From assembly GCA_016188065.1 (NCBI GenBank), contig JACPIN010000001.1, positions 17,661 to 81,660 on the forward strand: a stretch of 64,000 bases of DNA. Reading direction: 5' to 3'. The notes beneath the pieces are model-generated. The model had not been told where the DNA came from, did not search any database, and saw nothing but the letters and a program-made list of their open reading frames with translations. Both the position numbers and the translations under genes were made by a program. Positions 19,569 to 60,530 of the stretch are shown piece by piece; position 1 is the stretch's first letter; every line of letters starts with the position of its first letter. The stretch is from Candidatus Woesearchaeota archaeon. Lineage in GTDB: Archaea > Nanobdellota > Nanobdellia > SCGC-AAA011-G17 > ARS1403.

Positions 19569-19586
19569 AAATAATCAAAATTTAGC

Positions 19587-28996: not shown

Positions 28997-29045
28997 ATTT
29001 CAACTGACACACTTGCCATATACCCAGACAGCATTTATAAACAAA
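28997..29045 (+). promoter_or_regulatory. conserved ~49-bp upstream element plus TATA (copy 2)
   Basis: ATTTCAACTGACACACTTGCCATATACCCAGACAGCATTTATAAACAAAAG has the same architecture as 19520-19568. TTTATAAA sits about 25 nt upstream of the ATG at 29064. Confidence 0.55.
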
Positions 29046-29063
29046 AGAAAATAGTTCTTAATT

Positions 29064-43202: not shown

Positions 43203-45302
43203 TTATTCAAGCACAGCCTTTATCCTTCTCACACCAGAGCTAGAGCTTTCCTCTTTAATTATCTTAAATCTTCCAATTTCCTTAGTATTAGAAACATGAG
43301 GCCCACCACATAATTCCTTGCTATAGTCGCCAATGAAATAAACTTTTACAATATCGCCGTATTTGTGTTCAAAAACTCCGGTAATTCCTTTCTTCTTAGC
43401 GTCATCAAGTTTCATCTCTTCACATCTCACATTCAATTTTTTCTTTATCTGCACATTCACTTCATTTTCGATTTTTTTTAATTCCGCTTCAGTTATTTTT
43501 CTGGGAAGGTTAAAATCAAATCTCAGCCTCTCATGAGTTATGTTGCTCCCTCTTTGAGTTATATTTTTATCCTTCAAGACATTTTTCAAAGCCTGCAGTA
43601 ATAAATGCGTCGCTGTATGCAGCCTTGTGGTTTCCTCAGAATGATCGGCAAGCCCGGATTTAAATTTTCCTTCAGTGGCGGTTCTGCTCAGTTCTTTGTG
43701 TTTCTCAAATTCTTTTTCATAGCCTTTAATATCGACTTTCATTTTCTTTTCATTCGCCAGTTCCCGAGTCATCTCAATGGGAAACCCATAGCTGGTAAAC
43801 AAAATAAAAGCAACTCTTCCAGGCAATACTTTTTTTTTCAATTTTTTGGTCTCTTTTTCAAACACCTGCAATCCAATATTCAAGCTTCTATCAAATTTTT
43901 CCTCTTCTTTAGCAGTTTCATTTAAGATAAAATCTTCTCTGAAGAAATAATTCCATTTATAAGTAATAAAAACTTCCTTGATAATATCTGAGCAGAACCT
44001 GTGTTGAATTCCTAATAGCCTTCCATGCCTTATCGCTCTTCTTATTAATCTTCTCAGCACATATCCTCTCTCAAGATTGCTAGGAGCAACCCCCTCATTC
44101 AAAATAAAAGCTGCAGCCCTTAAATGATCAACAACTATCCTTTTGCTTCTGATATCATTTTTCTTTGCAAGCTTATTGACGCATTCCATTAAAGGCTTCA
44201 AAGTATCTATTTCATAAACATCAGAAAATCCATTCAGCGCAGCAAGAGTTCTCTCTACACCCATTCCAGTATCGACGTTTTTCTGTTTAAGCGTGTCATA
44301 ATATTCCAAATTATTTTTTATAAATTCCTCAATTTTCTTGATCTTGCCGTCATATAATAAGGCATTTTTTATCCCCATTTTTTCAGCTGCTTCAAGATTG
44401 CTCCCATCATGGTCAAAATATATTATCTCATCCTTGCCTAGATGATATTTCTCCATAAGTTTCCCAAAAAAAGCTTCATTATTTTTCAAAATCTTTCCAT
44501 TAAAAGAAAAGATCTCGTAATTATATCCTTTTAGTAATTCCTCAGCCTTCTCCTTAAAATTATTTACTACCAAAATTTTTTTAGCGTTAATGGATTGTAA
44601 TACATCAAATAACTTCCTATTAATGTTAAAACCATCATCATACAAACAGTGCATGCCGTCTATTAATAGGATTCTTTTTTTCTTGTTATATTCCATAAAC
44701 ACATCATTCCAGATCTCAATCCAATTCTTGTCTTTAGGATCAAATTTTCCTGGAATCTTCTTTCCAACATAATAGAACATTTCTGTGTCTGGTCCGCATG
44801 GTCCAGTGTTTCCAGCAGGCCCCCACCAGTTATCGTCTCTGCCTAAAAAAAATATCCTCTCTTTAGGAATTCCAATTCTCTCCCAAATCTCAGCAGAAAC
44901 AGAATCTCTTTCAGCAGTTTTATCTCCAGAAAAACAAGTAATTCCAATCCTATCTTTATTTAATCCCAAAGCCTCAGTCAAAAACTCAAAGCTCATCTCA
45001 ATTGCTTCCTCCTTAAAATAATCGCCCAGGCTCCAGTTGCCAAGCATCTCAAAAAGTGTCAGATGAAAATTATCTCCAACTTCCTCAATGTCCCCGGTTC
45101 TAATGCATTTCTGCACATTTACTAATCTCCTTCCAGCAGGATGCCTCTCTCCCAATAAAAATGGAACCAGTGGATGCATGCCGGCAGTTGTAAATAGGAT
45201 AGTAGGATCATTCTCAGGAATCAAGCTCGCATTCATAATCTCTCTATGTCCTTTTTTCCTGAAGAATTCAATATATTTTTTCTTTAAATCAATTGACTTC
45301 AT
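43203..45302 (-). CDS. alaS: alanyl-tRNA synthetase (compact, with a ~130-aa insertion)
   Basis: AlaRS motifs: N-terminal ...FTTAGM..., WNDVFMEYN, DTGMGVER, the editing HTATHLL region and GGPHVSNT. 699 aa. An extra segment lies between FMEYN and DTGMG. Confidence 0.85.
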   Translation of the reverse strand: MKSIDLKKKYIEFFRKKGHREIMNASLIPENDPTILFTTAGMHPLVPFLLGERHPAGRRLVNVQKCIRTGDIEEVGDNFHLTLFEMLGNWSLGDYFKEEAIEMSFEFLTEALGLNKDRIGITCFSGDKTAERDSVSAEIWERIGIPKERIFFLGRDDNWWGPAGNTGPCGPDTEMFYYVGKKIPGKFDPKDKNWIEIWNDVFMEYNKKKRILLIDGMHCLYDDGFNINRKLFDVLQSINAKKILVVNNFKEKAEELLKGYNYEIFSFNGKILKNNEAFFGKLMEKYHLGKDEIIYFDHDGSNLEAAEKMGIKNALLYDGKIKKIEEFIKNNLEYYDTLKQKNVDTGMGVERTLAALNGFSDVYEIDTLKPLMECVNKLAKKNDIRSKRIVVDHLRAAAFILNEGVAPSNLERGYVLRRLIRRAIRHGRLLGIQHRFCSDIIKEVFITYKWNYFFREDFILNETAKEEEKFDRSLNIGLQVFEKETKKLKKKVLPGRVAFILFTSYGFPIEMTRELANEKKMKVDIKGYEKEFEKHKELSRTATEGKFKSGLADHSEETTRLHTATHLLLQALKNVLKDKNITQRGSNITHERLRFDFNLPRKITEAELKKIENEVNVQIKKKLNVRCEEMKLDDAKKKGITGVFEHKYGDIVKVYFIGDYSKELCGGPHVSNTKEIGRFKIIKEESSSSGVRRIKAVLE

Positions 45303-45369: not shown

Positions 45370-45957
45370 TTATTCCCAGAAATACGTCTTCTCAGCATCC
45401 TGTAAGAAATTTCTTCCGCCTTCCTCACTCAAACACTCATTGCTGATGCATAAATTGCTTTTACATTCATAACTGTTCTCACAGCTTCCTTCTTTCTGAA
45501 CTCTTAAAGCCTGGGTAAAGTCACAATATCTTCCAGCAACCCTCATGCCTACAGGCAGGCATTCTCCATTATAGCTGCATCCCTGGCTGCATTTTAGCCC
45601 CTCGCTCTTTTCTTTCATTTTGCAAACACCAAAGCCCCCCTCGTCAACGCATCCAAACTCGCAAAAGATTTCCTCAATCTTGCCATCGCTCCTAGTAGCA
45701 TCGCAATAATACTCTCCAAGCGTAGTCGAATTAACGCAAAAATCCCTTCTTGCTTTAGTTGGATCAAAGCTTCCAATGACATTGCCTCCAACCTCTGCTT
45801 GTACACCGGCATCAGTATCAACACAATCTACAATGTTGGAAGATGCCCTTCCAGTAAACATGCTGCTAAAACTTCCAGTTAGTCCAAGAATAAGTATAAT
45901 TGCAAAAACAAGAACAGAAATACCAATTAATTTCCCCTTCTCCATAATTTTAAGCAA
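45370..45957 (-). CDS. secreted Cys-rich protein
   Basis: Signal/TM N-terminus and 14 Cys residues in 195 aa. Confidence 0.35.
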   Translation of the reverse strand: MLKIMEKGKLIGISVLVFAIILILGLTGSFSSMFTGRASSNIVDCVDTDAGVQAEVGGNVIGSFDPTKARRDFCVNSTTLGEYYCDATRSDGKIEEIFCEFGCVDEGGFGVCKMKEKSEGLKCSQGCSYNGECLPVGMRVAGRYCDFTQALRVQKEGSCENSYECKSNLCISNECLSEEGGRNFLQDAEKTYFWE

Positions 45958-45992
45958 AATAAATATCTATAAATATGTTTCGTTTTATTTTT

Positions 45993-46073
45993 TTCAGCAG
46001 CAGGCTTTTATGATGCAGAAAGACAATTCCAGATGAGAAGGGGGATTTATTTTCTTATAGCTTTCTCTAACAT
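45993..46073. repeat. degenerate copy of the 3' end of the giant gene (direct repeat A)
   Basis: About 85% identical to 47902-47982. It would encode SYKKIN..., but is frameshifted. Confidence 0.7.
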
Positions 46074-46214
46074 TTGTCTATTTCGCTTAATATTTCCAAT
46101 ATTTTAGAAATACAATCATTTATTTATAAATAAATTAGCTTATTTTCAATATTTTATAAATAGAAAGATTTATATAAGTAATATAATATCCATTTCCATT
46201 ATTTTAGAAATAAA

Positions 46215-46853
46215 ATGTTTATAGAAAATTTAATAGGCTCAAAGGCAAAAGTAAAGATATTAAGGGTTTTGTCAGAAACAAGAACAGCTTATAATCTTAA
46301 TAATCTCAAAGCCGAGACAGAATTAAGTTTAGGCATCGTCCATAAAGCATCTGAGGAGTTAACAGAAGAAGGTTTATTGCTAAAAATTAAAGGTAATAGA
46401 AAAGAAAGGCTTTACAAATTCAATACAGACAGTCCTTTTGCATCTTCAATATTTGAATTATTTAAAGTTGAAAAAACAAGACAGAGAAAGGAAATAATTT
46501 TTATGCATACATGGTCGATCCTAGAAGATATAGTATCAAAAATAAAGAGTAAATCAATTTTGATAATTCTTTTTGGCAGTCAGGCGAGGGGAGATGCCAC
46601 GTTAAATAGCGATATAGATCTGCTCATCATGTCAAAAAATTCCAAAGAGGAAATCCTGGATTTAATAAGGGAAATAAAGGTAAAAAACAAAATAAATCCT
46701 ACGCTGCTTAGCCAAGCTGAATTTAACGAAGAAATTAAAAATAATACCCTGTTTTACAGAAATATAAAAAAAGATTCTGTAATATTATATATAAATTCTA
46801 AAATTAAAAAAACCATATCTGAATTTTTGGAAGATATACAATACAAAGGGTAA
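46215..46853 (+). CDS. wHTH-fused minimal nucleotidyltransferase (MNT)
   Basis: Winged helix plus LFGSQARGDATLNSDIDLLI. It is a paralog of 23427-23975. Confidence 0.65.
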   Translation: MFIENLIGSKAKVKILRVLSETRTAYNLNNLKAETELSLGIVHKASEELTEEGLLLKIKGNRKERLYKFNTDSPFASSIFELFKVEKTRQRKEIIFMHTWSILEDIVSKIKSKSILIILFGSQARGDATLNSDIDLLIMSKNSKEEILDLIREIKVKNKINPTLLSQAEFNEEIKNNTLFYRNIKKDSVILYINSKIKKTISEFLEDIQYKG

Positions 46854-46859
46854 TCGAAA

Positions 46860-47348
46860 ATGGAGATAGATAAAGAATTCAAAGAAAAATGTTTAAGTAA
46901 GAGAACAATAACTCAAGAGCCGAATGTAAGCCTTATAGCAGAAAAAGGATTAAGGAAAACGATAGCAGAACAGCATAAGAGCAATGCAGAATATTTTCTT
47001 GAAGCTGCCAAAAATCTGCTGAAAGGCCCGACCCCATTGCTTTCTATTCTAATAGGGCATTTTGCGATGGAGCATAAAGCTAATCAATTGCTTGCTCTGC
47101 ATGGCTATAAAGTCGAAAGCCATATCTGCACACAGATCGGTTTAAGCAGAATAGTGGAAAGGAAAGATTTAGCAAAAAAACTTAGTGACATTTTTGCTTT
47201 AAGGCAAAGCATTGGATACAGAATGACCCTTAAACAGAGTGAGGAAAGCAGAAAAGAAACTGAAAAAGCCATCAACGAAACAATAATCCCTTTCTTTGAA
47301 CAGATTGACAAACTAGCAAATGAGATTAAAGTTCTTTATATTCTTTAA
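46860..47348 (+). CDS. HEPN-domain protein
   Basis: 162 aa, helical. It lies downstream of the MNT in the usual HEPN/MNT arrangement. Confidence 0.5.
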   Translation: MEIDKEFKEKCLSKRTITQEPNVSLIAEKGLRKTIAEQHKSNAEYFLEAAKNLLKGPTPLLSILIGHFAMEHKANQLLALHGYKVESHICTQIGLSRIVERKDLAKKLSDIFALRQSIGYRMTLKQSEESRKETEKAINETIIPFFEQIDKLANEIKVLYIL

Positions 47349-47607
47349 GATAAATTTTATCGTGATGATCATAGTCTAAAAATTGTATAAATTCTTCTTG
47401 CTTATTATATCTAAAAACTAACACAAAGGATTTTCTGATATGAACTCTTTTCAAATTTTTCAAATCATACCTTAAAGGCTTATAGTGCTCAGGGTCAGAA
47501 TTAACGATATCTTTAACTTTATTGATGATTGCTTTAAAAGTTTCATGATCTTTTTTCTTAAGCTTTTCTAATATTTTCTTAAGGTCATCAGAGAAATCAT
47601 ATCTCAT
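47326..47607 (-). CDS. RelE/ParE (YoeB-like) toxin
   Basis: ...YKPLRYDLKNLKRVHIRKSFVLVFRY...FIQFLDYDHHDKIY. Confidence 0.6.
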   Translation of the reverse strand: MRYDFSDDLKKILEKLKKKDHETFKAIINKVKDIVNSDPEHYKPLRYDLKNLKRVHIRKSFVLVFRYNKQEEFIQFLDYDHHDKIYLKEYKEL

Positions 47608-47809
47608 TGTCTAGAAATTCAATGAATTTCTCCTTAGAATCAAAGCTATGAAATTTTCCTTGCTGTATTTTCTCTAGTTTTTTAAGATACTCTGGCCTGA
47701 CTATATGCAGATCTTTGCTTATATCCTCAAGCTCATTATCCATAACAATAACTTTCTGCTTGATAAATTCTAAATCCTCATGAATTCTAAGTAAAACTTT
47801 ATTTTCCAT
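47597..47809 (-). CDS. putative antitoxin
   Basis: 70 aa. It overlaps the toxin start by 11 nt. Confidence 0.4.
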   Translation of the reverse strand: MENKVLLRIHEDLEFIKQKVIVMDNELEDISKDLHIVRPEYLKKLEKIQQGKFHSFDSKEKFIEFLDNEI

Positions 47810-47861
47810 TTTCTTGCAAAAGAGATATTAAGGTTTATATACGTATCGATGAGTTAATTCA

Positions 47862-50800
47862 TCAATTATCATTTTCTCCCACAACATCATTAACAAATAC
47901 ATTCAGCAGCAGGCTTTTATGATGAGGAAATACAATTCCAGACGGGAAAGGAGAATTTATTTTCTTATAGCTATCTATTACATCCTGCTCGACTTCGCTC
48001 CATAATATTTTGTCTTGCTTGCTTTTCTGTGCTATGCTTCTCATGATGTAAAATAAAACTCTATCATTAACATCTCCCTGCCCAATATTCTCATCACTCA
48101 CAAAGTAAGCTTTAGGAATTGTTCTTTGAACAGTGCAAACTCTTCCGAAGCCGCCACAGCCTCCCAAAAATATTAATTTCTTTTGCTGGCTTTGAACATC
48201 TGACGAAAATACCCTCAGCTCGCTAAAGCTATGTCCTCTATGAGAAACAATGTCTATATTAGGATCATTAACTGCTTCTTGCACATCATTCAAATCTTCA
48301 GTTAAAATAACCCTTAATTCAATTCCGTTATATCTTCCATTGCTCCTTCCATCAGTCAAGGTGCTATCGGGATTAACAGATATTACGGAAGTTTTTTCTT
48401 TCCGCTCAACAACTTTGAACTCAAATGACTTATCAAAGTTCCCCCGGGTTCTATCAATTTGCCCTTCTTGTGTAAAGTAAAGTTTTGCGGTCAACCGATT
48501 GTCCGAAAGCCATTCTTTAGGAACTACCGGCTCAAGAATTTCTGGCAACCTGCTTGAAATTTCAATTGCTCTCTGTTTATTCTTCTCGCTAAATTTATCT
48601 TTGTTTAGTTTTATGTGATAGCCAAAAACCGCTTTTTTTATTTTATCTGGAGGCAATTCTACAGTGTATTTAGCTGGATCATCAACACTAAGGTAGCCAT
48701 TCAATAAAAATTCCTCTATCTCTGGTTTGTATTGGGATAAATAAGGCTCATTAAATATAGCTTGGACAGTACTTACTAAAAGAACTCCATTATTTCTTAA
48801 TTTATCGATATCATCTTCTTGCAATGCTTTCTTTATAGAGCCAATCAAAAATTCAGGGTCTTTGTTAATAATGTCCTTCAGCTTGTTATAGTTAGCTAAA
48901 GTTAATGTGAATCCCAGAGCGTATTTCTGTTCAGGGTCAACTTCTTTTTTTATTTTGCTAATAAAGTCAGGATATCTTGGAGCAGGATAGTTTTGGCATT
49001 GCATAAGATTGTAACAATAAAGTTTTTCAAAACTGCTTGTATACAAATCTGCCCCGCCAAATGCCAATAAATAATAAACAGACCCTAAATCTAAATTCTG
49101 GCTTGTTGTAGTCCGGACAACATCGCTTCCATACTGTCCATCTTCCCTATTATGGAAACGATTAAGATTCACTGCCATATGTTTAAAAAACAAATCGTCT
49201 GGAACCTTTTTTCTATTAATTGCAGATGCCAGTGCTTCGCCTATCTGCTTAGAATACTGCGGGAGGGTATACCACGCTGAAAGTCGGGTTATGATAAGAC
49301 CAAGAATTTCATCTGTTTTTTCGTTTTTCAAGCCAGTAAGCAACACAGAGGTAACTTTGTCACTCCTTATGCCCTCCTCACCATGCAATGTCCTTCCCGT
49401 TAATAAAACTGCCATAGCCCTAACATTTGGGTCCTCACTCCTGATATCTTTATCCAAAGTATCATAGGTTATACGCTCCCCGGAGTAATATAATCTAATG
49501 TAAGCTAAAAGGTCAAGGATTACCTCTTTACTAATAGTTGGAAATTCAAAGCCCTCTTTTAGAATATTGGTCAATGCTGGATACGATTTATTAGACCAGA
49601 CCAGAGGAAGTAAGTTATTAAGAATGGAAGCTCTTACAGAATCCTCTTCTTTCTTGTCTTCCAAAAGTCTTAAGGCTATGCTTTCAATTTTTTCTCCTTG
49701 CAAAAATCCAGCAAAATTGTCTTCCTCTTCCTTTACGATATAGTGCGATAGAGGGATTACCCCATTAATTCTAATCTGTGAATCTTCATCTCGTAAATCG
49801 TGAAGAGACTTCAAAATTCCCTCATTATTTTGTAAATTTTTGCTCCACTTTATCTCCTCAAACTTCACACATTTATTAGTAACGCATAAGCTGTCCTCAT
49901 CCCAGCAATCCCTCTCTCCATTTTCAGTAACCAAAATAAAATCATCTTTGCAGTAAGGCAGGCAGACATTTTCTGTTTTAGCTAAACCAGCAACAGGCTT
50001 TCCCGCTCTCTTCTCAGTATTATATGGAACACAGCTTTCAGTTTCCTTTCCCAACAATCCATTCCAAATCTCCTTATTTATCATAACTAAAGAAACATAT
50101 TTTTTAGTTCCAAGAGGCAAATGGCATTTATTATTTGAATCTGGATTTGTAGTTATCTTTATTCTCTTATCAGCTAAAATCTCTTGCCATCCAGCATTTT
50201 CATTTCCAACACACTTCCTCCATCCCCCTACTCTCTTAGGCCCGGCATTGTAAGCGGCTAACGCTAACTCCTCACTTCCAAAAGCGTCTAATTGTTGTTT
50301 CAAATACAAAGAGCCAGCATGCAGTAAATTCATCCATTTAGCAGGTTTTTTATGGTGCTTGCCATCAAATAATTTGGCAGTATCGGGCAGGGTCTGCATT
50401 AAGCCATCAGCTCCAAATCCTCCTTTCGCATATTTTCTCCCGCTTGACTCTTTTGTAATAACAGCTAAAAGCAAAGATAAATCAATGTTCTCAATCTCAG
50501 ATACCTCTTTTATTTCATTAAATACTTCATTGTCTTTTTTTTCTAAATTCTTCTTGGTTTCTTCAACAATTCTCTGGCAGAACTCTTTTGGATTTCCGAA
50601 CACTTTAGCAAGACCTTTTACTGCTTTTCTTGCAAATGTAGGATTGTTTACATCGCATCCTATTTCATCTTTTCCATAATCAATAATAGCATTATAATCC
50701 TCCTCTGTTATCCATCTATGTTTTAAAGCTAAATCCAAATTCTCATTGTATAATTCAGCATTCCCATATTCTCCATTAATGGAATTATAAGCAATTTCAG

Positions 50801-53309
50801 GTTTGTATTTAATATGCTCTAATAAATAGGCAGCAAATTCCTCAATGTCTATGCACTGCGCAGGCCTGTAAGCTCCATTCATAGGGTTATCTTGGTTATT
50901 CTTCCATAAAGTAAAGCCTTCATAATCATTAAAAATATGCTCACTGCAAAAGTCTAGCGTCTCAAAAAATTCCTTATACTCCGGAATAAAATCAAATCTT
51001 AAACGTTCTCTGCTAACAAAATCCCTGATCAATTTATCCTTTATAAAAACATCAAATAAATCATTGCTTACAATAACATCAAACGCCTCTTCAGAGCTCA
51101 TTCCCTCTCTGTAAAAAGGCCTATACCGCAATACTTCTTTAAGAAACATCTTAGCAAGATTCTTTTCAATGGCAATTTGCTTAACCCTCTCATACACACC
51201 ATGGACATATTTTCCTTCTTCATCATAAATTATCTTATCATATTTCTCCCTCAGTTGATTTTGATAGGCATGAACATATTCGTGATATAGATCAGACTCT
51301 GGATTATAAGGATAGGTGCGCTCAGGATGCAGCAATGCATCTGACTCATAAAAGTCAACATATAATGTATTTTTACGAGGAATATAAAATGCCGCTACCG
51401 CCCCTCCTCTATCAACCGAGGATTTAGTCTCAAGCCTATAAAACATAGGCATCTCATCTTTAGTAACTAAATAAATCTTTAAGTTTTCAACCTTCAGCGG
51501 CTTGAACTTATTTTGGATAAGATAAAGAATGTCATCATTGAGCTGCTCAAGAACCTCTTTTTTAGCATCGTCTCTTGATACTCCATTAAGCACTATTCTT
51601 CTTTCAATATATCCCTCAGAATATCCGAGTTTAATAGAACATTTATTATCTTCAACAGTGCTTCCAGTAATCAAATCAGAATTTTTGTCATCGTAGCTGG
51701 CGCATAAAACATCAGTGGTTTTTATTTTGCTGGTATCTATCTCAGGCTCAAGAATTTTTCTTAATGATTCTAAATCGAGCTCGGCTTTTCTTTTATCGCT
51801 TTCAGGTTCAATGATTTCAAAAGTTTCAGGATCATAATAAATTCTGTCATAAATTTCAAAGGGTTTTCCAAAAAGACCCTCTTTTCCTTCTATACCAAAA
51901 GATTCTCCTTCCAGATTAAAAATATCATAATAAGAAATATACGAACCATTTTCATTTTGACTTTTAGACAATTTATATGTTCCCATAATCCCTACACTTC
52001 CTACAATCCCAAGTTCTTCTACAATCCCAAGTTCTTCTTCAATCCCACGTGCATCATAGAATCTAGCTTCACCACCGTATTTATCAATATAGTTAATTAG
52101 ATCCTGTAAAGATAGGTTTGTTCGAGTTTTATAATCGGGAATGTTTGCTTTAAATTGTGATATAAAATCATTTATTTTGTAATAATAGATTTCGTCTTTG
52201 CTATCACTTGGTCTATAATCAGATATACCGAAAGTATTATGCTGCTGTGGTAAACCTAAATAAAATCTCCATGCATCTTCACGTCGATTATTCGATAATT
52301 TCCTCTCTTTCAAAAGGTTAAAAACAAATTCTCTTAGTTTCTCATCTCTTCCTATTCCATACCCATAAGGTACAATTCCTTTATAAAGCAATTCGCTAAC
52401 ACATGGTAAATAAGCCTCTCTCTGCTCTCGAGTAATCCCCTTTTCAGCAAGTTCCTTCCTTGCACGTTCCTTCATCTCCTCAAAAGAATATTCAGAAGGT
52501 TTAAGATCAGAAAATACTCGTGTATTATCCACTTCAACAGGGCATGTCTCAACTAAAACTCCTTCCAAAGTTTTCCTCGGCTTCGCAATTCTCACAACCC
52601 CAGGAACAATCTCTTTCTGCGCAGGAATTAAAGAAACAGGTTTTCCTTCATTTCTATTATCAAAGAAAACCCTTATCTTAATTCCATAATCATTGTAGTC
52701 AGTATAGCTTCCTCTTTCATATCTTAAAATTCTCTTCTCATTCCTAGTTCCAGTTCCAAAAGGCAATGTATAAATTACTTCGGTATTGTCGTAAACTTCA
52801 ACAGACTCATCTTGCTTAGTAAACACACTTCTGTAAATTATCTTATCAGGAGTATGCACATAATATTTAGGATTGTTAGGAAATACAAATTTAGAATTAT
52901 CTTTAATCGTGATAGAGTAAGCATTTATGTTTTCAGCTCTCTCGCCAACAGGAACAGGCTGCGGAATTGCAATTGGTTTCATATTAATCGGATCAAGAAC
53001 TTGTTGAAATGATACAGTTACCTCAGTATTATGCTCATATGTCTCATACCATACAATAGAAAACTGTAAAATCTGTTTTCCTAAAGGTGGATTTATAAAA
53101 ATATATTGTCCGTTAGAATCTGTTACAGTTTTTTTATCAGTACCTTTAATAGCAACTTGAACTCCTTTTAGAGGTTGGTCATTCTCATCCAAAACTGTTC
53201 CACCAACAGCATGAGAGATCCCCTCAGGACTCTCTCCTACAATCTGGCTTTCGCTTAAAGGAATAAAAAATAACATCCCAAGAATTAAAATAAAAACTAA
53301 TTTATTCAT
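47862..53309 (-). CDS. giant secreted multidomain protein (CarboxypepD_reg-like, HExxH metalloprotease motif, lytic transglycosylase, HEAT-like repeats, C-terminal His/Cys module)
   Basis: 1815 aa. Signal peptide; GTVLDENDQPLKGVQVAIKG...DSNGQYIF; LYHEYVHAYQ; the SLT domain LLLAVITKESSGRKYAKGGFGADGLMQTLPD...AAYNAGP; and the C-terminal ...SHRGHSF...FLGGCGGFGRVC. Confidence 0.7.
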   Translation of the reverse strand: MNKLVFILILGMLFFIPLSESQIVGESPEGISHAVGGTVLDENDQPLKGVQVAIKGTDKKTVTDSNGQYIFINPPLGKQILQFSIVWYETYEHNTEVTVSFQQVLDPINMKPIAIPQPVPVGERAENINAYSITIKDNSKFVFPNNPKYYVHTPDKIIYRSVFTKQDESVEVYDNTEVIYTLPFGTGTRNEKRILRYERGSYTDYNDYGIKIRVFFDNRNEGKPVSLIPAQKEIVPGVVRIAKPRKTLEGVLVETCPVEVDNTRVFSDLKPSEYSFEEMKERARKELAEKGITREQREAYLPCVSELLYKGIVPYGYGIGRDEKLREFVFNLLKERKLSNNRREDAWRFYLGLPQQHNTFGISDYRPSDSKDEIYYYKINDFISQFKANIPDYKTRTNLSLQDLINYIDKYGGEARFYDARGIEEELGIVEELGIVGSVGIMGTYKLSKSQNENGSYISYYDIFNLEGESFGIEGKEGLFGKPFEIYDRIYYDPETFEIIEPESDKRKAELDLESLRKILEPEIDTSKIKTTDVLCASYDDKNSDLITGSTVEDNKCSIKLGYSEGYIERRIVLNGVSRDDAKKEVLEQLNDDILYLIQNKFKPLKVENLKIYLVTKDEMPMFYRLETKSSVDRGGAVAAFYIPRKNTLYVDFYESDALLHPERTYPYNPESDLYHEYVHAYQNQLREKYDKIIYDEEGKYVHGVYERVKQIAIEKNLAKMFLKEVLRYRPFYREGMSSEEAFDVIVSNDLFDVFIKDKLIRDFVSRERLRFDFIPEYKEFFETLDFCSEHIFNDYEGFTLWKNNQDNPMNGAYRPAQCIDIEEFAAYLLEHIKYKPEIAYNSINGEYGNAELYNENLDLALKHRWITEEDYNAIIDYGKDEIGCDVNNPTFARKAVKGLAKVFGNPKEFCQRIVEETKKNLEKKDNEVFNEIKEVSEIENIDLSLLLAVITKESSGRKYAKGGFGADGLMQTLPDTAKLFDGKHHKKPAKWMNLLHAGSLYLKQQLDAFGSEELALAAYNAGPKRVGGWRKCVGNENAGWQEILADKRIKITTNPDSNNKCHLPLGTKKYVSLVMINKEIWNGLLGKETESCVPYNTEKRAGKPVAGLAKTENVCLPYCKDDFILVTENGERDCWDEDSLCVTNKCVKFEEIKWSKNLQNNEGILKSLHDLRDEDSQIRINGVIPLSHYIVKEEEDNFAGFLQGEKIESIALRLLEDKKEEDSVRASILNNLLPLVWSNKSYPALTNILKEGFEFPTISKEVILDLLAYIRLYYSGERITYDTLDKDIRSEDPNVRAMAVLLTGRTLHGEEGIRSDKVTSVLLTGLKNEKTDEILGLIITRLSAWYTLPQYSKQIGEALASAINRKKVPDDLFFKHMAVNLNRFHNREDGQYGSDVVRTTTSQNLDLGSVYYLLAFGGADLYTSSFEKLYCYNLMQCQNYPAPRYPDFISKIKKEVDPEQKYALGFTLTLANYNKLKDIINKDPEFLIGSIKKALQEDDIDKLRNNGVLLVSTVQAIFNEPYLSQYKPEIEEFLLNGYLSVDDPAKYTVELPPDKIKKAVFGYHIKLNKDKFSEKNKQRAIEISSRLPEILEPVVPKEWLSDNRLTAKLYFTQEGQIDRTRGNFDKSFEFKVVERKEKTSVISVNPDSTLTDGRSNGRYNGIELRVILTEDLNDVQEAVNDPNIDIVSHRGHSFSELRVFSSDVQSQQKKLIFLGGCGGFGRVCTVQRTIPKAYFVSDENIGQGDVNDRVLFYIMRSIAQKSKQDKILWSEVEQDVIDSYKKINSPFPSGIVFPHHKSLLLNVFVNDVVGENDN
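47902..47982. repeat. direct repeat B (authentic 3' end of the giant gene)
   Basis: Partner of 45993-46073. Confidence 0.7.
51990..52050. repeat. in-frame 18-bp tandem repeat (about 3 copies) inside the giant gene
   Basis: ACAATCCCAAGTTCTTCT x2 plus partial copies. It encodes EELGIVEELGIV. Confidence 0.6.
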
Positions 53310-54658
53310 CTGCCGCCCCTTTCAACTATTTTCCAGTAGCCGCCTTTTGCAGGGCCAATTCTTTTTAACAGGCCTTTTTTCTTTAATTTTGAAATATTCT
53401 TATCAATTGCCGTAGTGCTGATTCCTATCCTCTCAGATAATTCTTGTTTTGAAATTTTTTGATTCTTTGAAATTAGGGATAAGATTTTTCTTTGAGTTTC
53501 TACCAACCCTTCTACCAACCCTTCTACCAACCCTTCTACTGCATCTATTTTTGGTCTATAAAAAATAATCCTGAAAAAATCATTAGTTTCAAATTTAACT
53601 TTTATTCCTCTTTGCTTAACAAGATTTTTGATTCTATTGATGCCAGAACCAACCTTTTCAATTAAATTCAACCTATGGAATATATCAAACAATAGGGGGT
53701 TTCTGGGAATGCTAATTTTGCCTAACTCTTTCCTATCAAAAAGAAGTTTTCCTTTATTTGTAATTTCAACCCTATCATCAAATATTTCCACAAATATACC
53801 AAACCTGTCTTCAAAATAATCCCTATGGATTATAGAGTTGATTATCGCTTCTCTTAAAGCCTCATAAGGTATTTCTGGAATTTCTTTTCTTGGGCCATAT
53901 CCCTTTATCTCATATTCCAATCTTAAATGCTGTTTTAAAAAAGCAAATGCATCTTCATAATTTCTTAGTAAATCATTTTTGAAATCTTTTCTATCAATAA
54001 TGTCTACCTTTTCTTCGCCTTTGAATAAAACACAAGTAATGAAATTTTGCCTAAAAAACTTTTCCGGATTCTTAGCAAACAATAAAACTCCCGAATTATT
54101 CAACATAAACCTTTTATTGAAAGACTCTCCAAAGGAAAGATTGATTAAAATCTCCTTGATAGGAATTACTTTAGAAATATTACTTCTTCTTAGAAACTCT
54201 TTGAATTTATTCTTATCAAAATCTTTTGGGAAATTGAACTCTTTATTTAGCTGCTCATCGAATTTAACTTTTCCAACCTCGCGAATTAGCTCAACAATTT
54301 CATCCCTCTTCATCTTCTGGGAATTTGGACCTTGCCTCAAGTAAAATCCTTCTTTGCATTTGTATGGTTTGTCTTTTCCTTCTTCAACATGGATTATCAA
54401 GATGTTTTCAAGTTCTTCCAATTTAATTTTTATCTTCGGATCGCAATTATTTGCTATATCCTGAATTTCCGATTTTATCTTATTTGTTGTTTTTATACCT
54501 TTTATGTTTCCATTATCTGTCACTCCCAAAAATATTCTTCCTCCTTCTGAGTTTGCAAAAGCAACAAGCTCTTTATCTAACTTATTTATCGATTCTTTGA
54601 ATTCTAACTTCAATCCTTCTCCTTCCTGCAGTATAAAATTTAATTCTTTTTTATCCAT
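53306..54658 (-). CDS. AlbA_2 (Schlafen-like) domain / HATPase / wHTH putative transcriptional regulator
   Basis: LKLEFKESINKLDKELVAFANSEGGRIFLGVTDNGNIKGI is the AlbA_2 signature. The C-terminal wHTH is ISKQELSERIGISTTAIDKNISKLKKKGLL. Confidence 0.6.
   Translation of the reverse strand: MDKKELNFILQEGEGLKLEFKESINKLDKELVAFANSEGGRIFLGVTDNGNIKGIKTTNKIKSEIQDIANNCDPKIKIKLEELENILIIHVEEGKDKPYKCKEGFYLRQGPNSQKMKRDEIVELIREVGKVKFDEQLNKEFNFPKDFDKNKFKEFLRRSNISKVIPIKEILINLSFGESFNKRFMLNNSGVLLFAKNPEKFFRQNFITCVLFKGEEKVDIIDRKDFKNDLLRNYEDAFAFLKQHLRLEYEIKGYGPRKEIPEIPYEALREAIINSIIHRDYFEDRFGIFVEIFDDRVEITNKGKLLFDRKELGKISIPRNPLLFDIFHRLNLIEKVGSGINRIKNLVKQRGIKVKFETNDFFRIIFYRPKIDAVEGLVEGLVEGLVETQRKILSLISKNQKISKQELSERIGISTTAIDKNISKLKKKGLLKRIGPAKGGYWKIVERGGR
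53501..53539. repeat. in-frame 12-bp tandem repeat (TACCAACCCTTC x3.25)
   Basis: It encodes (EGLV)4 in the linker before the C-terminal wHTH. Confidence 0.6.
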
Positions 54659-55663: not shown

Positions 55664-56263
55664 TCAACCAAACACCTCTATAGTTTTAGCTTTAACCTTA
55701 TACTTCTCCAGTAATTTAAAGATTTCTTTTCTGTATTGGACAGGCAGCATAATACAACTCTTGCCAAGCTTTTTGCCATCATACTTATTCAATATACCCT
55801 CATAAGATTTATTTCCGACTCTAAAGCCATAAAGCTTATTAAGAAAAGCCCCTCTATTTTTTCCTACCTCGTCCCAAAAAATAATAATAAATTTCTTTAC
55901 ATCAGAAGTTTTTTCTCTTAGTTCGTATGCTCCGTATAAAACAATGCCTGTAGAAGCAATTGAGGTATGAAGATCCTTCCATTCTTTCAAATCTCCTATT
56001 TTAATATCAAAATCATTGCTAATCCCCTTTAATTTAAACAGGGATGCCTCTCTGCTTTCATAAAATTTTTCCGAAACATCTCTTATCTCATTTTCAAATT
56101 TTTTGGTTTTCTTTTTCACCTCGATAAATAAATCAATATCGCTTTCCTTTGTCCCTTCATCTCTTGCAACAGAGCCGTAAAGGATTACTTTTTCTACATT
56201 GCCTACACTCTTTAGATTACTCAAAAGATAGGATACAAAATAACTAGCATATTGTTTCAGCAT
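55664..56263 (-). CDS. nucleotidyltransferase (MNT-like) with C-terminal extension
   Basis: VILYGSVARDEGTKESDIDLFI is the NTase GS...DxD motif. Confidence 0.6.
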   Translation of the reverse strand: MLKQYASYFVSYLLSNLKSVGNVEKVILYGSVARDEGTKESDIDLFIEVKKKTKKFENEIRDVSEKFYESREASLFKLKGISNDFDIKIGDLKEWKDLHTSIASTGIVLYGAYELREKTSDVKKFIIIFWDEVGKNRGAFLNKLYGFRVGNKSYEGILNKYDGKKLGKSCIMLPVQYRKEIFKLLEKYKVKAKTIEVFG

Positions 56264-56667
56264 TTCACAATCTCCTTCAATTTGAAAAATAAATTAATTT
56301 TGTCTTGTAAAACCGTCTCGCTTGCAGGAGCTCCATAAGCCAAATCATCTCTTTTTAGTTCAATTCTGCAGATGATCTCAACAACTTCGTCGATTTTTTC
56401 AAGCGACTTTATAGGAGAAGTTATCTGTTTTTGCAAGATCTCCAAAACCCTTTCTTTCTTTCTTTTAAACCATGTATGATCTATTTTAGATCCTTCTTTC
56501 ATCACATCCAGCTTATGAAAATACAACTCTAGAAGATTAACTGCTCCTAAAGAAAGGGAAAAAGCAAGCCTTCTCTGATGCATGAGCAATCCATTTTTAT
56601 CATTCAAGGCAACTTCTATTTCATCTAATACCTCTTTCAAAGCTTCTTCATGCCTTTCTCTCCTCAT
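56257..56667 (-). CDS. helical partner protein of the NTase (HEPN-like?)
   Basis: 136 aa, overlapping the NTase start. No clean Rx4-6H motif is visible. Confidence 0.3.
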   Translation of the reverse strand: MRRERHEEALKEVLDEIEVALNDKNGLLMHQRRLAFSLSLGAVNLLELYFHKLDVMKEGSKIDHTWFKRKKERVLEILQKQITSPIKSLEKIDEVVEIICRIELKRDDLAYGAPASETVLQDKINLFFKLKEIVKC

Positions 56668-56767
56668 TTTAAGTCATTTGTCTTAATAAGTTTAAGACAC
56701 TTGTCTTTATAAATTTTTCTGAAATTTTAAGTCATTTGTCTTAATAAGTTTAAGACACTTGTCTTTA
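56667..56767. repeat. two copies of a 43-bp unit (58-bp period) with internal dyad symmetry
   Basis: TTTTAAGTCATTTGTCTTAATAAGTTTAAGACACTTGTCTTTA x2. Each unit contains TGTCTTAA-N5-TTAAGACA and AAGACA-CT-TGTCTT. Confidence 0.6.
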
Positions 56768-56781
56768 AGAATTTTGGATAA

Positions 56782-59262
56782 TTATTCTAAATATATCGCA
56801 GGTTTCCCAGCTTTTGCTTTCGCAGCTTTCTTCTCAGGATCATATTTATTCTTGTCATTTACAGAAAATATTTTAATTTCAAGATTCGTTTTCATGGAAA
56901 TAGTTTCAATATTGTCCTTGTAAATTTTTTCTTCTTTCGGCAAAGTGTAAACAAAGCATTTCTTGACATCTTTCTTAATTAATTTAACAACATGGTTGAT
57001 GTCCTCGATAATTTTCTCAGTCTGCTCTTCCTCTTTCTCCAGGCTTTCATCAATCTTGCTTTCATCAACATCAGGCCATTCAGCGAGGCATACATACCCC
57101 TCTCCTTTCCATAGCTCCTCTGCAAGATGGGGAGCAAAACAGCTTAGCATAATCAAAATTTTTCCAAAGCTGGTTTCAAAAACTTTCAGGGATACATTTT
57201 CCTTATTGTTGTAAATAAAATTAGTAAGCTGCATTAATCTGCTGATAGCCAAATTGAATTTAAATTCTTCTATATCTAAAGCTACCTCCTTAATAGTTCT
57301 ATTTAATTTGCTTTCAAGTAATTTGTCTTTAATGCTTGATTTAACTTTTACTCTCTCTTTAAATGAATAAATTTTTCTTAAAAATCTGTAAACACCATCT
57401 ATAGCCTCATCATCCCATTCTTTATCCTTATCAGGGGCAGATAAAAACAGCAAATAAGTGCGCAGTGTGTCAGCGCCATAGTTATCAACAATGCTCATAG
57501 GATCCACTATGTTTCCCCGGCTCTTGCTCATTTTCTCCCCGCCTTTGTTTATCATGCCCTGATTAAAGAGATTTATCACAGGCTCATCAATCTTCAGCAA
57601 TCCCAAATCTCTCAAAGCCTTGGTAAAGAATCTGCAGTACAGCAAATGCATAACCGCATGCTCAGCGCCGCCAATATAATAATCAAGAGGAACCCAGTAA
57701 TCTACTTTTTTAGAATCAAAAATTTTTTTATCGTTTTTATTGTCGCAATATCTTAAGAAATACCAGCTAGAATCAATGAAGCTGTCCATTGTGTCTGTTT
57801 CTCTTCTCGCCTTTCCACTGCATTTACTGCATCGAGCATTCACAAACTTCTCATTTCTAGCCAACGGGTTCCCTTTCCCAGAAAATTTCACATCCTCAGG
57901 AAGTAAGACTGGAATCTCAGCAGGAACAGCACCGCATTTTTCACAGTAAATAATAGGTATTGGAGTGCCCCAGTATCTCTGTCTAGAAATAAGCCAATCT
58001 CTCAATTTATATTGTACCATTTTTCTTCCCAATTTTTTCTCTTCCAAGTATTTGGAAATCTCAGTAGAAGCTTCAAGGTTTTTCTTGCCGTTAAACTTTT
58101 TATCAGAGTTGACAATTATCCCTGGTTCAATATAAGCCTTCATCATTTTTTCAGGGTCTAAATCATGGTTTTCGGGTTTAATCACGATCTTTATCGGCAG
58201 CTTGTATTTCTTAGCAAATTCAAAATCTCTTTGGTCATGAGCAGGAACCGCCATCACTGCACCTGTCCCATATTCAAGTAAAACAAAATTAGCAATATAA
58301 ATAGGGACATCATCTCTATTAACAGGATTGATGGCATATTTTCCAATAAATAAGCCTTCTTTCTCTTTATCCTCGGCAGTTCTCTCAAACTTCTCTTCTA
58401 ATACAACTTTATCAATAAAGTCCTTAGTTTTTTTCTCATACATAGTTCCCTTAACAAGCTCAGTTACCAGGGGATTTTCAGGGGCTAAAACCATAAAAGT
58501 AACCCCCCATAAAGTATCAGGCCTAGTGGTAAATACTTTTAATTTTTCATTGCTTCCTTTTAGCTTGAAATCAATTTCAGTTCCCTGGCTTCTGCCGATC
58601 CAATTCTCTTGCATGAGCTTAATTCTATGTGGCCATCCATCTAATTTCTTCAAATCACTTAATAGCTCATCAGCATATTTTGTTATGCGCAAAAACCACT
58701 GCTCTAATTGCTTTATCTCGACTTTACTACGGCATCTCCAACACTCGCCGTCTTCAACCTGCTCATTGGCAAGCACAGTTCCGCAGCTATCACACCAGTT
58801 GGCAGGAGCTTTTGTTCTATAAGCCAGGCCTTTTTCAAAAAATTTCAAAAATAGCCATTGATTCCATTTGTAATATTTGACATCGCAAGTTTTAATCAGC
58901 CTATTCCAATCATAACTCAGCCCAAGCCTCTTCTGTTGATAAAGAAAATTTTGGATGCTTTTTTCAGTATATTTTCTAGGATGCACTCCTTCTTTTATCG
59001 CAGCATTTTCAGCAGGCAGGCCAAATGCATCATAGCCCATAGGATATAAAACAGAAAACCCTTTCAATCTTTTATACCTTGCAAAAACATCGCCTATAGA
59101 ATAATTAATAGCATGGCCCATATGTAAGCCGTAAGATGAAGGGTATGGAAAAAACTCAACTATGTAGCATTTTTCTTTCTTTCTATTTTCTTCAGCCTCA
59201 AATACTTTGTCTTTCTCCCATTTTTTCTGCCACTTCAATTCAATATCCCGAAACTCTTTCAT
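56782..59262 (-). CDS. leuS: leucyl-tRNA synthetase, bacterial type
   Basis: HMGH (PYPSSYGLHMGHAINYSIGD) and KMSKS (GGEKMSKSRGN). The N-terminal ~230 aa are near-collinear with bacterial LeuRS. 826 aa. Confidence 0.9.
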   Translation of the reverse strand: MKEFRDIELKWQKKWEKDKVFEAEENRKKEKCYIVEFFPYPSSYGLHMGHAINYSIGDVFARYKRLKGFSVLYPMGYDAFGLPAENAAIKEGVHPRKYTEKSIQNFLYQQKRLGLSYDWNRLIKTCDVKYYKWNQWLFLKFFEKGLAYRTKAPANWCDSCGTVLANEQVEDGECWRCRSKVEIKQLEQWFLRITKYADELLSDLKKLDGWPHRIKLMQENWIGRSQGTEIDFKLKGSNEKLKVFTTRPDTLWGVTFMVLAPENPLVTELVKGTMYEKKTKDFIDKVVLEEKFERTAEDKEKEGLFIGKYAINPVNRDDVPIYIANFVLLEYGTGAVMAVPAHDQRDFEFAKKYKLPIKIVIKPENHDLDPEKMMKAYIEPGIIVNSDKKFNGKKNLEASTEISKYLEEKKLGRKMVQYKLRDWLISRQRYWGTPIPIIYCEKCGAVPAEIPVLLPEDVKFSGKGNPLARNEKFVNARCSKCSGKARRETDTMDSFIDSSWYFLRYCDNKNDKKIFDSKKVDYWVPLDYYIGGAEHAVMHLLYCRFFTKALRDLGLLKIDEPVINLFNQGMINKGGEKMSKSRGNIVDPMSIVDNYGADTLRTYLLFLSAPDKDKEWDDEAIDGVYRFLRKIYSFKERVKVKSSIKDKLLESKLNRTIKEVALDIEEFKFNLAISRLMQLTNFIYNNKENVSLKVFETSFGKILIMLSCFAPHLAEELWKGEGYVCLAEWPDVDESKIDESLEKEEEQTEKIIEDINHVVKLIKKDVKKCFVYTLPKEEKIYKDNIETISMKTNLEIKIFSVNDKNKYDPEKKAAKAKAGKPAIYLE

Positions 59263-59337: not shown

Positions 59338-59425
59338 GGGCCCGTAGCTCAGTTTGGATAGAGCACTAGCCTTCTAAAGGTTTGATGAAAGCTAGGGGTC
59401 GCGCGTTCAAATCGCGTCGGGCCCG
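59338..59425 (+). tRNA. tRNA-Arg(TCT) with a 13-nt intron at canonical 37/38
   Basis: Acceptor GGGCCCG/CGGGCCC, D-arm GCTC-AGTTTGGATA-GAGC, anticodon stem CTAGC/GCTAG, T-arm GCGCG-TTCAAAT-CGCGT. The insert 59377-59389 has a BHB with a 3/4-bp central helix. Mature loop CTTCTAA. Confidence 0.7.
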
Positions 59426-59821
59426 AACATAAAAAGCTCAACGACTCTGAAGAAGATACCAAATTAAGATAGCTATCAAAATTATTATTATTACAAGTAC
59501 CAATGGAGTAATCCCTCTTTTATTCATAAAATTGTCTCCTCTCTAATTTCTGAATTCTTTTATCGAAATAATATATAGTAATAACTAACGCTAATATAAA
59601 TGTTATGGCCATCAACTGTTGTGACTCCTTAAATCAAATGAAATAAAATATCGAATCAGCCGCAGCAATAAAGCCTGTGCCTGTAGCCAAAGGGAGGTTT
59701 ATCAAATAGTTTCTTTCCATTAGCCATAATAGATTTAATCAGGTAATATATTTAAGGTTTCTTTTAGCAAAAACTTGCAAACAAAATTCTTTTAAACTGC
59801 TGTTGATATACTTTTTTTATA

Positions 59822-59895
59822 AGGGCAGATGCCGGAGTGGTCTAACGGGACCGCCTGCAGAGCGGTTATCCGGGGGTTCGAATCCCTCTCTGCCC
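59822..59895 (+). tRNA. tRNA-Cys(GCA)
   Basis: Acceptor GGGCAGA/TCTGCCC, anticodon stem ACCGC/GCGGT with loop CTGCAGA, T-arm GGGGG-TTCGAAT-CCCTC, and a 5-nt variable loop. Confidence 0.8.
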
Positions 59896-59907
59896 TCTCT
59901 CCTCAAT

Positions 59908-60411
59908 ATGAAAATCAAATCACTTTCAACAGCAACAATTAAACAAGCATCAGCATTAACATTAAAACTCTTCGAGCCTTCTCCAAAAGATGAAGATTAT
60001 CCGCCAAGATGGTTTTCAGCAAGCATTGATCCAAAAAAGCATTTGAATCTTTTTGAAGAATTTAAAGTGAAAAAGCTAAAATATTATGTCGCAATAGATG
60101 AAAAAACCAAGAAGATAATTGGAACAACTGGATTCTATACTTCAAGCCAAGATGAAAAGGAAGCTTATTGGTTAGGTTGGTGGTGTGTTGATGAAAAGTA
60201 CAGGAACAAAGGGGTAGGTACAAAACTGCTTGAGTTCATTATAAATAAAGCAAGGAAAGCAAAGAAAAAATTTCTCAGGGCATATACTTCAACAGATCCC
60301 CATGAATATGAAGCCCAAAAAATATATGAAAAACATGGTTTTAAAGTTTTCAAAGAAGAATCAATCCCTGAAAAGCCTTACAAAAAGTTATATCGGGAAT
60401 TAAAATTATAA
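59908..60411 (+). CDS. GNAT-family N-acetyltransferase
   Basis: Acetyl-CoA-binding region WWCVDEKYRNKGVGTKLLEF. The ORF-track start (59803) overlaps tRNA-Cys, so the M at 59908 is used here. Confidence 0.6.
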   Translation: MKIKSLSTATIKQASALTLKLFEPSPKDEDYPPRWFSASIDPKKHLNLFEEFKVKKLKYYVAIDEKTKKIIGTTGFYTSSQDEKEAYWLGWWCVDEKYRNKGVGTKLLEFIINKARKAKKKFLRAYTSTDPHEYEAQKIYEKHGFKVFKEESIPEKPYKKLYRELKL

Positions 60412-60530
60412 AAGAAAAAAATAAAAAGAAAAATAATCTAAAGCGATTATTCAAAAATTATTCGGGAATTAAAATTATAAAAGAAAAAAATAAAAAGAAA
60501 AATAATCTAAAGCGATTATTCAAAAATTAT
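60393..60530. repeat. 69-bp tandem duplication x2 spanning the GNAT stop codon
   Basis: TCGGGAATTAAAATTATAAAAGAAAAAAATAAAAAGAAAAATAATCTAAAGCGATTATTCAAAAATTAT is repeated exactly. Confidence 0.7.

Follow-up and report, generated by a model that had tools for sequence, protein, structure and literature searches.

The 64,000-nucleotide stretch analyzed here (the window) comes from a Candidatus Woesearchaeota archaeon (assembly GCA_016188065.1, contig JACPIN010000001.1, positions 17,661 to 81,660 of the forward strand). Our subject is a giant gene within it, encoding a protein of 1815 amino acids (aa), and a degenerate copy of that gene's own 3′ region, the relic, which lies downstream of the gene behind two toxin-antitoxin (TA) modules, cassettes A and B. 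Between leuS and a gene for a Cys-rich protein, the minus-strand order is: a 136-aa protein paired with a protein resembling minimal nucleotidyltransferases (MNT), a 334-aa protein, a Schlafen/AlbA_2-HATPase_c_4-winged-helix-turn-helix (wHTH) protein, the giant gene, cassettes A and B, and the relic (Table 1). The Cys-rich protein is entered at NCBI as a hypothetical protein of Candidatus Woesearchaeota archaeon.

Table 1. Features of the giant-gene locus, in window coordinates.
Feature	Position	Strand	Basis
Insertion, 10,789 bp, relative to L027/L028/L029 and L031	45993..56781		tblastx colinearity, junction sequences, gene content
leuS, left backbone flank	56782..59262	-	comparison with relatives
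Giant gene, 1815 aa; N-terminal CarboxypepD_reg, SLT lytic transglycosylase at aa 933-1037, hypervariable middle, conserved C-terminal module	47862..53309	-	Pfam, comparison
Segment of the active giant gene matching the relic	47902..48010	-	alignment
True gene tail, (N)VFVNDVVGENDN plus stop, single copy in window	47862..47901	-	protein alignment with P0001-P0004; DNA alignment with L011 and L015
Cassette A: TATA-like box, DUF2683-like putative antitoxin, ParE/RelE/YafQ-like toxin	47336..47861	-	present in L015 (~90% identical), absent from L011
Cassette B: wHTH-MNT, HEPN, promoter region	46096..47335	+	HEPN 98% identical in L011; L015 has unrelated MNT/HEPN
Relic: non-coding, frameshifted copy of the near-terminal 109 nt (codons KILWSEV...HHKSLLL), without the last 12 codons and stop	45993..46095	-	alignment, translation, blastn
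Promoter native to the Cys-rich gene (TATA-like TTTATAGA ~27 nt before the ATG)	45946..45992	-	96% identical in L015
Cys-rich membrane-anchored/secreted protein gene; conserved backbone leuS, Cys-rich gene, alaS	45370..45945	-	comparison

The relic and the active gene end form a direct repeat that can be read directly from the sequence. In a gapped local alignment of 45993-46095 with 47902-48010, 90 of 109 columns are identical, with 13 mismatches and four indel events. A repeat search returned the match in two blocks, 45993-46053 with 47902-47962 (84%) and 46038-46073 with 47948-47983 (86%), a 1-nt indel shifting the register. An earlier note on this DNA had put the identity of 45993-46073 and 47902-47982 at about 85%; the alignment agrees and extends the match to 46095/48010. 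In a blastn search of the relic against the whole window, the match has an E-value of 1.7e-23 and the next best one an E-value of 0.002. A 23-mer shared by the two copies (CATCATAAAAGCCTGCTGCTGAA) occurs, with up to three mismatches, exactly twice in the window and not at all in 100 shuffles. The repeat is not a general terminator or regulatory element: there are only two copies in the window, and those found elsewhere are all homologous to the giant-gene end of their own genome. Folding of the DNA of both copies, on both strands, gave no structure beyond shuffled controls (z = -0.24 to +0.96) and no attC-like or terminator-like hairpin.

The active copy lies within the 1815-aa open reading frame (ORF) and codes for ...KILWSEVEQDVIDSYKKINSPFPSGIVFPHHKSLLLN. 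It had been taken as the authentic 3′ coding end of the gene, which holds insofar as 47902-47982 sits inside an intact giant gene; it is not the extreme end, however, as 12 further codons (VFVNDVVGENDN) and the stop (47862-47900) follow, placing this near-terminal repeat 37 coding nt before the stop. The tail beyond the repeat (NVFVNDVV...) fits the family pattern N-x-F-[IV]-[NE]-x-[VI] in a protein alignment with P0001-P0004, where tails such as NPFINQV and KGFIENV occur, and by this match the active end is authentic and complete. The relic, by comparison, reads SYKKINPP/SPFSSGIVFLHHKSLLL only by way of a frameshift and has in-frame stops upstream, and for these reasons it is non-coding, as proposed earlier. 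Mismatches between relic and active copy are distributed 3:2:8 over the three codon positions, so much of the difference arose under coding constraint. The relic adjoins the Cys-rich gene (45370-45945/45957, minus strand), which starts 36-48 nt beyond it, again as the note had described. It has no evident function, and most likely it is a recombination scar and not a working element.

The history of the site is clearest in relatives. We recovered L027, L028 and L029 (all from Hainich groundwater) and L031 through Cys-rich homologs of 70-76% identity. In these, leuS is followed after ~40-48 nt by the Cys-rich gene and then by alaS, with no giant gene there. In tblastx alignments, L027 and L031 match the window colinearly to either side, with a jump from the leuS stop at 56782 to the Cys-rich gene at 45945, so that the boundaries are observed directly. 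The 47 nt 5′ of the Cys-rich ATG in the window (AAAAAATAAAACGAAACATATTTATAGATATTTATTTTGCTTAAAATT) have their homologous counterpart in L027 immediately behind the leuS stop, and likewise in L028 and L029. Because leuS directly precedes the Cys-rich promoter in these giant-gene-free relatives, the segment 45993-56781, giant gene included, is an insertion, and the relic its right-hand edge. Its position at the insertion terminus accounts for the relic ending abruptly after ...LLL, without a tail. We considered whether KKIKR-NIFIDI-YFA*, which follows the relic, was a degenerate gene tail with a 15-nt insertion. We rejected this idea, since genomes lacking the giant gene have the sequence after the leuS stop as well, which makes it the native promoter. 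The earlier note had predicted an empty site in which the giant gene is directly followed by the Cys-rich gene; none was found, and the empty sites instead have leuS directly before the Cys-rich gene.

Homologs of the left-hand genes of the insertion lie downstream of alaS in L027, that is, elsewhere in that genome. In L034 a gene for YkuD (L,D-transpeptidase; 1002-1637) occupies the leuS/Cys-rich junction, a third state, and this intergenic spot is a recurrent insertion site. Profile searches turned up no integrase, transposase or recombinase domain anywhere in the 10.8-kb insertion or in the 10 kb to each side of it, and no recombinase domain from 39605 to 62712. In content the insertion looks like a small defence or accessory island. 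Its Schlafen/AlbA_2, HATPase_c_4 and winged-helix protein (450 aa; 53306-54658, minus strand), whose gene overlaps the giant-gene start by 4 nt, gives a partial match to a PADLOC pAgo-associated model (69 bits). At the left edge of the insertion (56666-56775) stand two tandem 52-nt copies, 96% identical, each with the palindrome AAGACA...TGTCTT. They sit between the leuS stop and the genes for the 136-aa and MNT-like proteins (56257-56667 and 55664-56263), of which they may be the operator.

Between the two repeat copies, profile searches found the accessory genes that had been claimed, a wHTH-MNT/HEPN pair and a RelE-like/antitoxin pair. In cassette B, downstream of a very AT-rich promoter region (46096-46214, 13% GC), the product of 46215-46853 (plus strand) combines a wHTH with NTP_transf_2 (47.7 bits; PADLOC PDC-M05A, 72.8 bits) and carries the GSx(n)DxD nucleotidyltransferase motif as GSQARGDATLNSDIDLL. 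Six nt separate it from 46860-47348 (plus strand), which matches HEPN PF05168 at 23.4 bits (cutoff 22). A minimal nucleotidyltransferase with its motif beside a HEPN protein is the composition of MNT-HEPN (type VII-like) modules; the NCBIfam MntA model matched below its cutoff (35 bits vs. 60). Where the HEPN RNase motif Rx4-6H is expected, the protein reads RQSIGY, with Y for H, and R-x6-H occurs only near its N-terminus. The HEPN protein of the relative L015 (3870-4382, minus strand) likewise has R-x4-Y at the position of R-x4-6-H, reading REQYQY. In cassette A, the gene at 47326-47607 (minus strand) is ParE/RelE/YafQ-like, with 23.0 bits for PF05016 (cutoff 23), 65.6 for TIGR00053 YafQ (cutoff 87) and 26.8 for TIGR02385 (cutoff 27.9). 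It overlaps by 11 nt a DUF2683-like gene at 47597-47809 (minus strand; 22.3 bits, below the cutoff of 27), an architecture that fits a type II TA system at borderline profile scores.

The two cassettes meet on the HEPN stop codon at an AGAATA microhomology, a junction that gives the HEPN protein five extra residues. At the downstream junction of cassette A there is no relic in the window and a 59-nt relic in L015. A target-site duplication of ~10 bp around cassette A (TTAACTCAT / TTAATCTCAT) was considered and dropped: in L015, too, the left copy belongs to the cassette, and the AGAATA microhomology accounts better for the right junction. Since L011 has the HEPN gene (98%) without the DUF2683/RelE pair, and L015 has the DUF2683/RelE pair with an unrelated MNT/HEPN, the TA genes of the window form at least two independent modules and not a single cassette.

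Among the relatives found, none has the same gene order without the repeat, and several carry further gene-end copies. L015, a JGI metagenome contig of ~80% nucleotide identity to the window, keeps the same synteny into the Cys-rich gene and alaS; its positions 5987-8336 are colinear with 46073-43681 of the window, which puts its fourth relic at the position of the window relic. Its order is active end, A, relic1 (59 nt), MNT′/HEPN′, relic2 (229 nt), a MazE/ParE pair (cassette C), relic3 (~85-110 nt), relic4 (~100 nt, orthologous to the window relic) and Cys-rich gene, giving four 5′-truncated gene-end copies and three TA modules. MNT′/HEPN′ is unrelated in sequence to the window pair, relic2 is an intact 61-codon ORF, and relic3 and relic4 stand head-to-tail without cargo between them, joined at a TGGAG microhomology. 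The 5′ boundaries of these relics are directly observed and all differ (gene coordinates 2894, 2984, 3026 and 3039), and relics run to the gene tail wherever their far end is not itself a junction. The window relic is 72% identical to relic4 of L015, and each is 83-85% identical to its own active end; the 72% is close to the identity at four-fold sites of flanking genes, 59-70%. On these figures, the divergence of the relics fits neutral decay since before the window and L015 lineages split.

In L011, a contig from a Woesearchaeota metagenome-assembled genome, the active end is followed by cassette C, an 89-nt relic with tail and stop, 10 nt, and a HEPN gene 98% identical to that of the window; cassette A is absent. 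The tail of this relic matches the active tail of the window at 20 of 20 positions vs. 66% for L011's own active tail. The incoming end was therefore a diverged allele and not a self-duplication. Midway through its HEPN gene, at 4257-4501, the L011 contig (CAZDKM010000061.1) gives way to high-GC sequence that is unrelated, and this contig end is probably a chimeric assembly.

In the distant Woesearchaeota L013/L021 (37% aa identity), the last 68 nt of the giant gene are repeated twice (91% and 83%) around a UPF0175 pair and modules of the MNT/HEPN type, beyond which lies the gene for a secreted protein. This array is an independent replicate of the arrangement. The 403-aa secreted protein of L013 has no significant similarity to the Cys-rich protein of the window. 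At 10427-11372 in L013, a giant-gene homolog is split by an insertion sequence (IS) element with a Zn-ribbon InsA-like ORF and an IS240/IS6-type DDE transposase. More distant giant-gene homologs that we examined had no downstream relics. The tails distal to the repeat are only 10-13 aa long and hold no domain (NVFVNDVVGENDN, NGFINEIAGDS, NGFINEIVGE). Behind them stand complete TA modules of two genes each (DUF2683+RelE-like, MazE+ParE, MNT+HEPN), some of which are read from the opposite strand.

The giant gene itself varies in patches. Pfam detects only CarboxypepD_reg and SLT in its product. The C-terminal module (HRGHS...GGCGG), the last ~550-780 aa, also exists as stand-alone proteins of 755-782 aa in other DPANN archaea. 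Against L011, identity is 95% over the 5′ part of the gene; the middle gives no DNA match, and the C-terminal module stands at 70-80%, with one patch of 97%. These alignments show the giant gene to be a recombination mosaic that holds a hypervariable segment. No DNA similarity is detectable among the window, L011 and L015 over the middle (~49060-49860), whose flanks are 80-95% identical, and the 97%-identical patch shared with L011 lies at 48655-48835 within the 70-80% region. A confident AlphaFold2 model of the last 340 aa (47865-48884, minus strand; predicted local distance difference test score 86.6) has a helical part and, after it, an alpha/beta domain that contains the invariant HRGHS and GGCGG motifs. 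Comparison with the PDB by sequence and by fold gave nothing significant for these 340 aa.

To look at populations, Logan contigs at least 99.9% identical to the window were retrieved from at least six Sequence Read Archive runs. Those with the Cys-rich gene, from four runs, all end exactly at 46026, inside the relic. Of the five carrying the giant gene, three, from three runs, end exactly at 46239 (ends at 46026/46239 are in loci L001-L004, L005, L023 and L026). No retrieved Logan contig bridges the gap from 46026 to 46239 (212 nt, 19.8% GC) or shows an alternative junction. The breaks could reflect a coverage drop, or a graph branch or population variant. A search of IMG/VR for the repeat core, relatives of the giant C-terminal module and relatives of the MNT protein gave no match, and thus no viral link. 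Searches of the literature on Woesearchaeota TA systems, and on TA modules together with homology-facilitated illegitimate recombination, found nothing relevant.

We consider it moderately likely that the relic is the scar of a serial displacement of the giant gene's 3′ end. The ancestral backbone would have been leuS, promoter, Cys-rich gene and alaS. A block ending in the giant gene would have inserted between leuS and the promoter, its right end cut within the last ~40 nt of the gene. Later imports from related strains would have brought in the giant gene's distal portion together with a complete end and the TA modules behind it, by a homologous left crossover inside the giant gene and an illegitimate or microhomology-based right join at or just upstream of the resident gene's end. 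The resident end (KILWSEV...LLL) would then be pushed downstream, untranslated and decaying, and repeated rounds would give arrays in which a gene end is followed by TA modules and relics in alternation. Variable illegitimate joins on the right predict relics with differing 5′ boundaries, as seen. The TA dominance in the cargo plausibly reflects their being the most mobile small units in these genomes; addiction would select against loss through recombination between the flanking repeats, and the TA modules may in this way protect repeat-flanked DNA from deletion. We infer this order of events, the one-sided homology and the stabilizing role of the TA modules. The earlier note had supposed that a TA cassette was inserted by recombination that duplicated the gene end. 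Entry by recombination and the dead end left behind are retained here, but the copy is better read as a displaced former end than as a simple duplicate, because the relics of relatives are 5′-truncated at different points and the relic tail of L011 is unlike its own active tail.

Several known systems resemble this arrangement. Integron and superintegron arrays consist of small cassettes, many of them TA pairs, with an IntI integrase and attC hairpin sites. Like them, the loci described here have small modules, many of them TA pairs and plausibly stabilizing, separated by direct repeats of ~60-230 bp. Unlike integrons, they have no IntI integrase, their repeats are pieces of coding sequence without an attC-like hairpin, boundaries vary, and the cassettes have their own promoters and lie in both orientations. 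Some integrative elements target gene 3′ ends and supply a replacement end, such as tRNA-gene islands and e14 or phage 21 at E. coli icd. These likewise leave an intact active gene and a displaced pseudo-3′-end as a direct repeat beyond the inserted DNA; here, in contrast, there is no integrase and no constant att core, the cargo is very small and the units are stacked serially. Homology-facilitated illegitimate recombination, in which one-sided homology anchors foreign DNA, has been shown experimentally in naturally transformable bacteria. As in the process proposed here, one side is joined by a homologous crossover and the other illegitimately or through microhomology, and adjacent foreign genes come in with the DNA, but here the mechanism is inferred from scars only, in uncultivated archaea, and recurs at one gene.

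The nearest described process is the C-terminal displacement in Rhs and CdiA genes, with their arrays of 'orphan' tips (Jackson et al. 2009, PMC2935791; Poole et al. 2011, PMC3150448). In both cases a large recombining gene for a surface or secreted protein is followed by 5′-truncated copies of its own 3′ region in the same orientation (one in the window, four in L015, one in L011 and two in L013). In both, on the displacement reading, the copies mark former ends displaced by DNA that used homology in a conserved part of the gene, with small accessory genes in between. The differences are that no polymorphic toxin tip exists here, only 10-13 aa lying distal to the repeat, that the giant protein has no Rhs/YD or CdiA/FHA repeats, that the place of cognate immunity genes is taken by autonomous TA pairs with promoters of their own, some of these pairs lying on the opposite strand, and that the host is a DPANN archaeon. 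On the features compared above, the locus is neither an integron nor an att-site duplication.

Against serial 3′-end displacement, several points have to be weighed. An intermediate in which the giant gene abuts the Cys-rich promoter, without TA modules, was not found among the genomes examined, and the evidence comes entirely from metagenome contigs, some of them short and one, L011, chimeric at its end. L011 and L015 share the 5′ boundary of the relic 3′ of cassette C although what follows it differs, which fits better with a cassette moving together with its flanking repeats. Cassette A is ~90% identical between the window and L015, the adjoining gene tail and spacer just upstream only 62-73%, and it is linked to different tail types in the two; for A, therefore, the idea of gene end plus cassette as one block is not simply true. 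In L013 the duplicated stretch reaches past the gene end, through the intergenic spacer and 11 nt into the next gene, and looks more like a duplication that flanks an insertion. The last three of these points also favour an explanation in which repeat-flanked TA cassettes are the mobile unit: a circle or linear cassette carrying one repeat, released by recombination between two gene-end copies, would insert into the single gene end of another genome by Campbell-type homologous recombination and regenerate the repeats, and the relic would be a by-product of cassette mobility, not of gene 3′ replacement. The block of gene end, C and relic is colinear between L011 and L015 (82.8% over 949 nt) in different contexts, and module order differs, C coming before B in L011 and after B′ in L015; a circular intermediate of this sort was proposed for Rhs tips by Jackson et al. 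(PMC2935791). We count this explanation a close rival, yet doubtful as the main origin of the relic, given that the downstream junctions of A differ between the window and L015, that the long divergent tract in the L011 gene argues for an import far larger than a small circle, and that the near-identical Logan contigs contain no circular junction or cassette-less variant. Displacement and cassette mobility may both operate.

The remaining explanations account for less of the pattern. If the relic were the remnant of a mostly deleted tandem paralog, which the earlier note had offered as its alternative, or of a local tandem duplication of the gene end, with TA genes inserted independently, the window relic taken alone would be compatible, as would the head-to-tail relic3 and relic4 of L015. 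Near-complete deletions sparing only the 3′ end would have to recur, however, four times in L015 and again in L011 and L013; the relic of L011 differs from its own active tail, and the third-position mismatch bias indicates diverged alleles. With relatives carrying arrays of short 5′-truncated ends, a second paralog is less parsimonious and not needed, and we judge it very unlikely. TA modules are typical survivors of decayed elements, and the repeats might be att sites of integrase-driven elements that targeted the giant-gene 3′ end, brought a replacement end and have since decayed to TA modules; a displaced downstream copy and an intact active end are what such att sites would leave. Yet no integrase, transposase or recombinase occurs in the insertion, within 10 kb on either side, in the L015 and L011 arrays, or in the L013 array downstream of the gene end. 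The repeats range in length from 0 to 229 nt and share no core boundary, the cassettes measure only 0.5-1.3 kb, and the IMG/VR searches were empty, so that this explanation is already weakly refuted and stands as highly improbable. It is less credible still that the repeated gene end is functional, whether in regulation or termination, in attC-like recombination, or as a reservoir of silent 3′ cassettes with which the giant protein could switch its C-terminus. It is true that two deeply separated lineages show the arrangement 3′ of this gene family, that the core ...PSGIVFPHHKSLLL is kept in every copy, and that relic2 of L015 is an intact ORF. But retention of the core is automatic if relics are 5′-truncated ends, no predicted structure exceeds that of shuffled sequence, boundaries vary, the variable tail is only ~10-13 aa, and the relics have frameshifts and deletions and diverge at about the synonymous rate.

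Some other features of the window were recorded. The alanyl-tRNA synthetase gene (43203-45302, minus strand; 699 aa) has an apparent ~120-aa HAD-hydrolase-like insertion in its catalytic domain, Pfam tRNA-synt_2c being split in two; the L027 ortholog has a weak PF00702 match between the parts, and the L031 and L032 orthologs are 574-578 aa long. At 60393-60530 lies a perfect 69-bp tandem duplication that includes the last 19 nt of a GNAT acetyltransferase ORF (59803-60411); it could be a very recent gene-end duplication or an assembly artefact. A direct repeat of ~98 nt (19519-19616 and 28996-29093; 73% overall, the first ~50 nt nearly identical) contains TTTATAAA and stands just upstream of two unrelated ORFs, where it looks like a shared promoter or leader element. 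Two tRNA matches are over-long, probably through introns: 59338-59425 (88 nt), called tRNA-Pyl(cta) by ARAGORN, and 29792-29894 (103 nt), found by Rfam only.

The movement of chromosomal TA modules without transposases is poorly documented, especially in archaea, and how the tiny genomes of DPANN archaea gain and retain accessory genes is largely unknown. The locus described here is a legible fossil record of such events at base-level resolution: a 10.8-kb insertion with exact borders, and at least four different TA modules stacked behind a mosaic surface-protein gene, each round leaving a displaced end. Its practical value is modest: it offers a marker with which strains could be typed and recombination models tested in metagenomic populations. 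A more far-reaching idea, which we regard as unlikely, is that the giant-gene 3′ end serves Woesearchaeota as a dedicated, integrase-independent capture platform for TA and defence cassettes, the gene-end repeats providing portable homology for excision, circulation and re-insertion. If true, this would be an archaeal analogue of the integron based on homologous recombination, and its recurrence in two lineages at 37% protein identity would reflect a selected system and not repeated accidents. Read as serial 3′-end displacement, the locus suggests that a fast-recombining surface gene, as the anchor for homologous recombination, offers these organisms a way to acquire TA modules.

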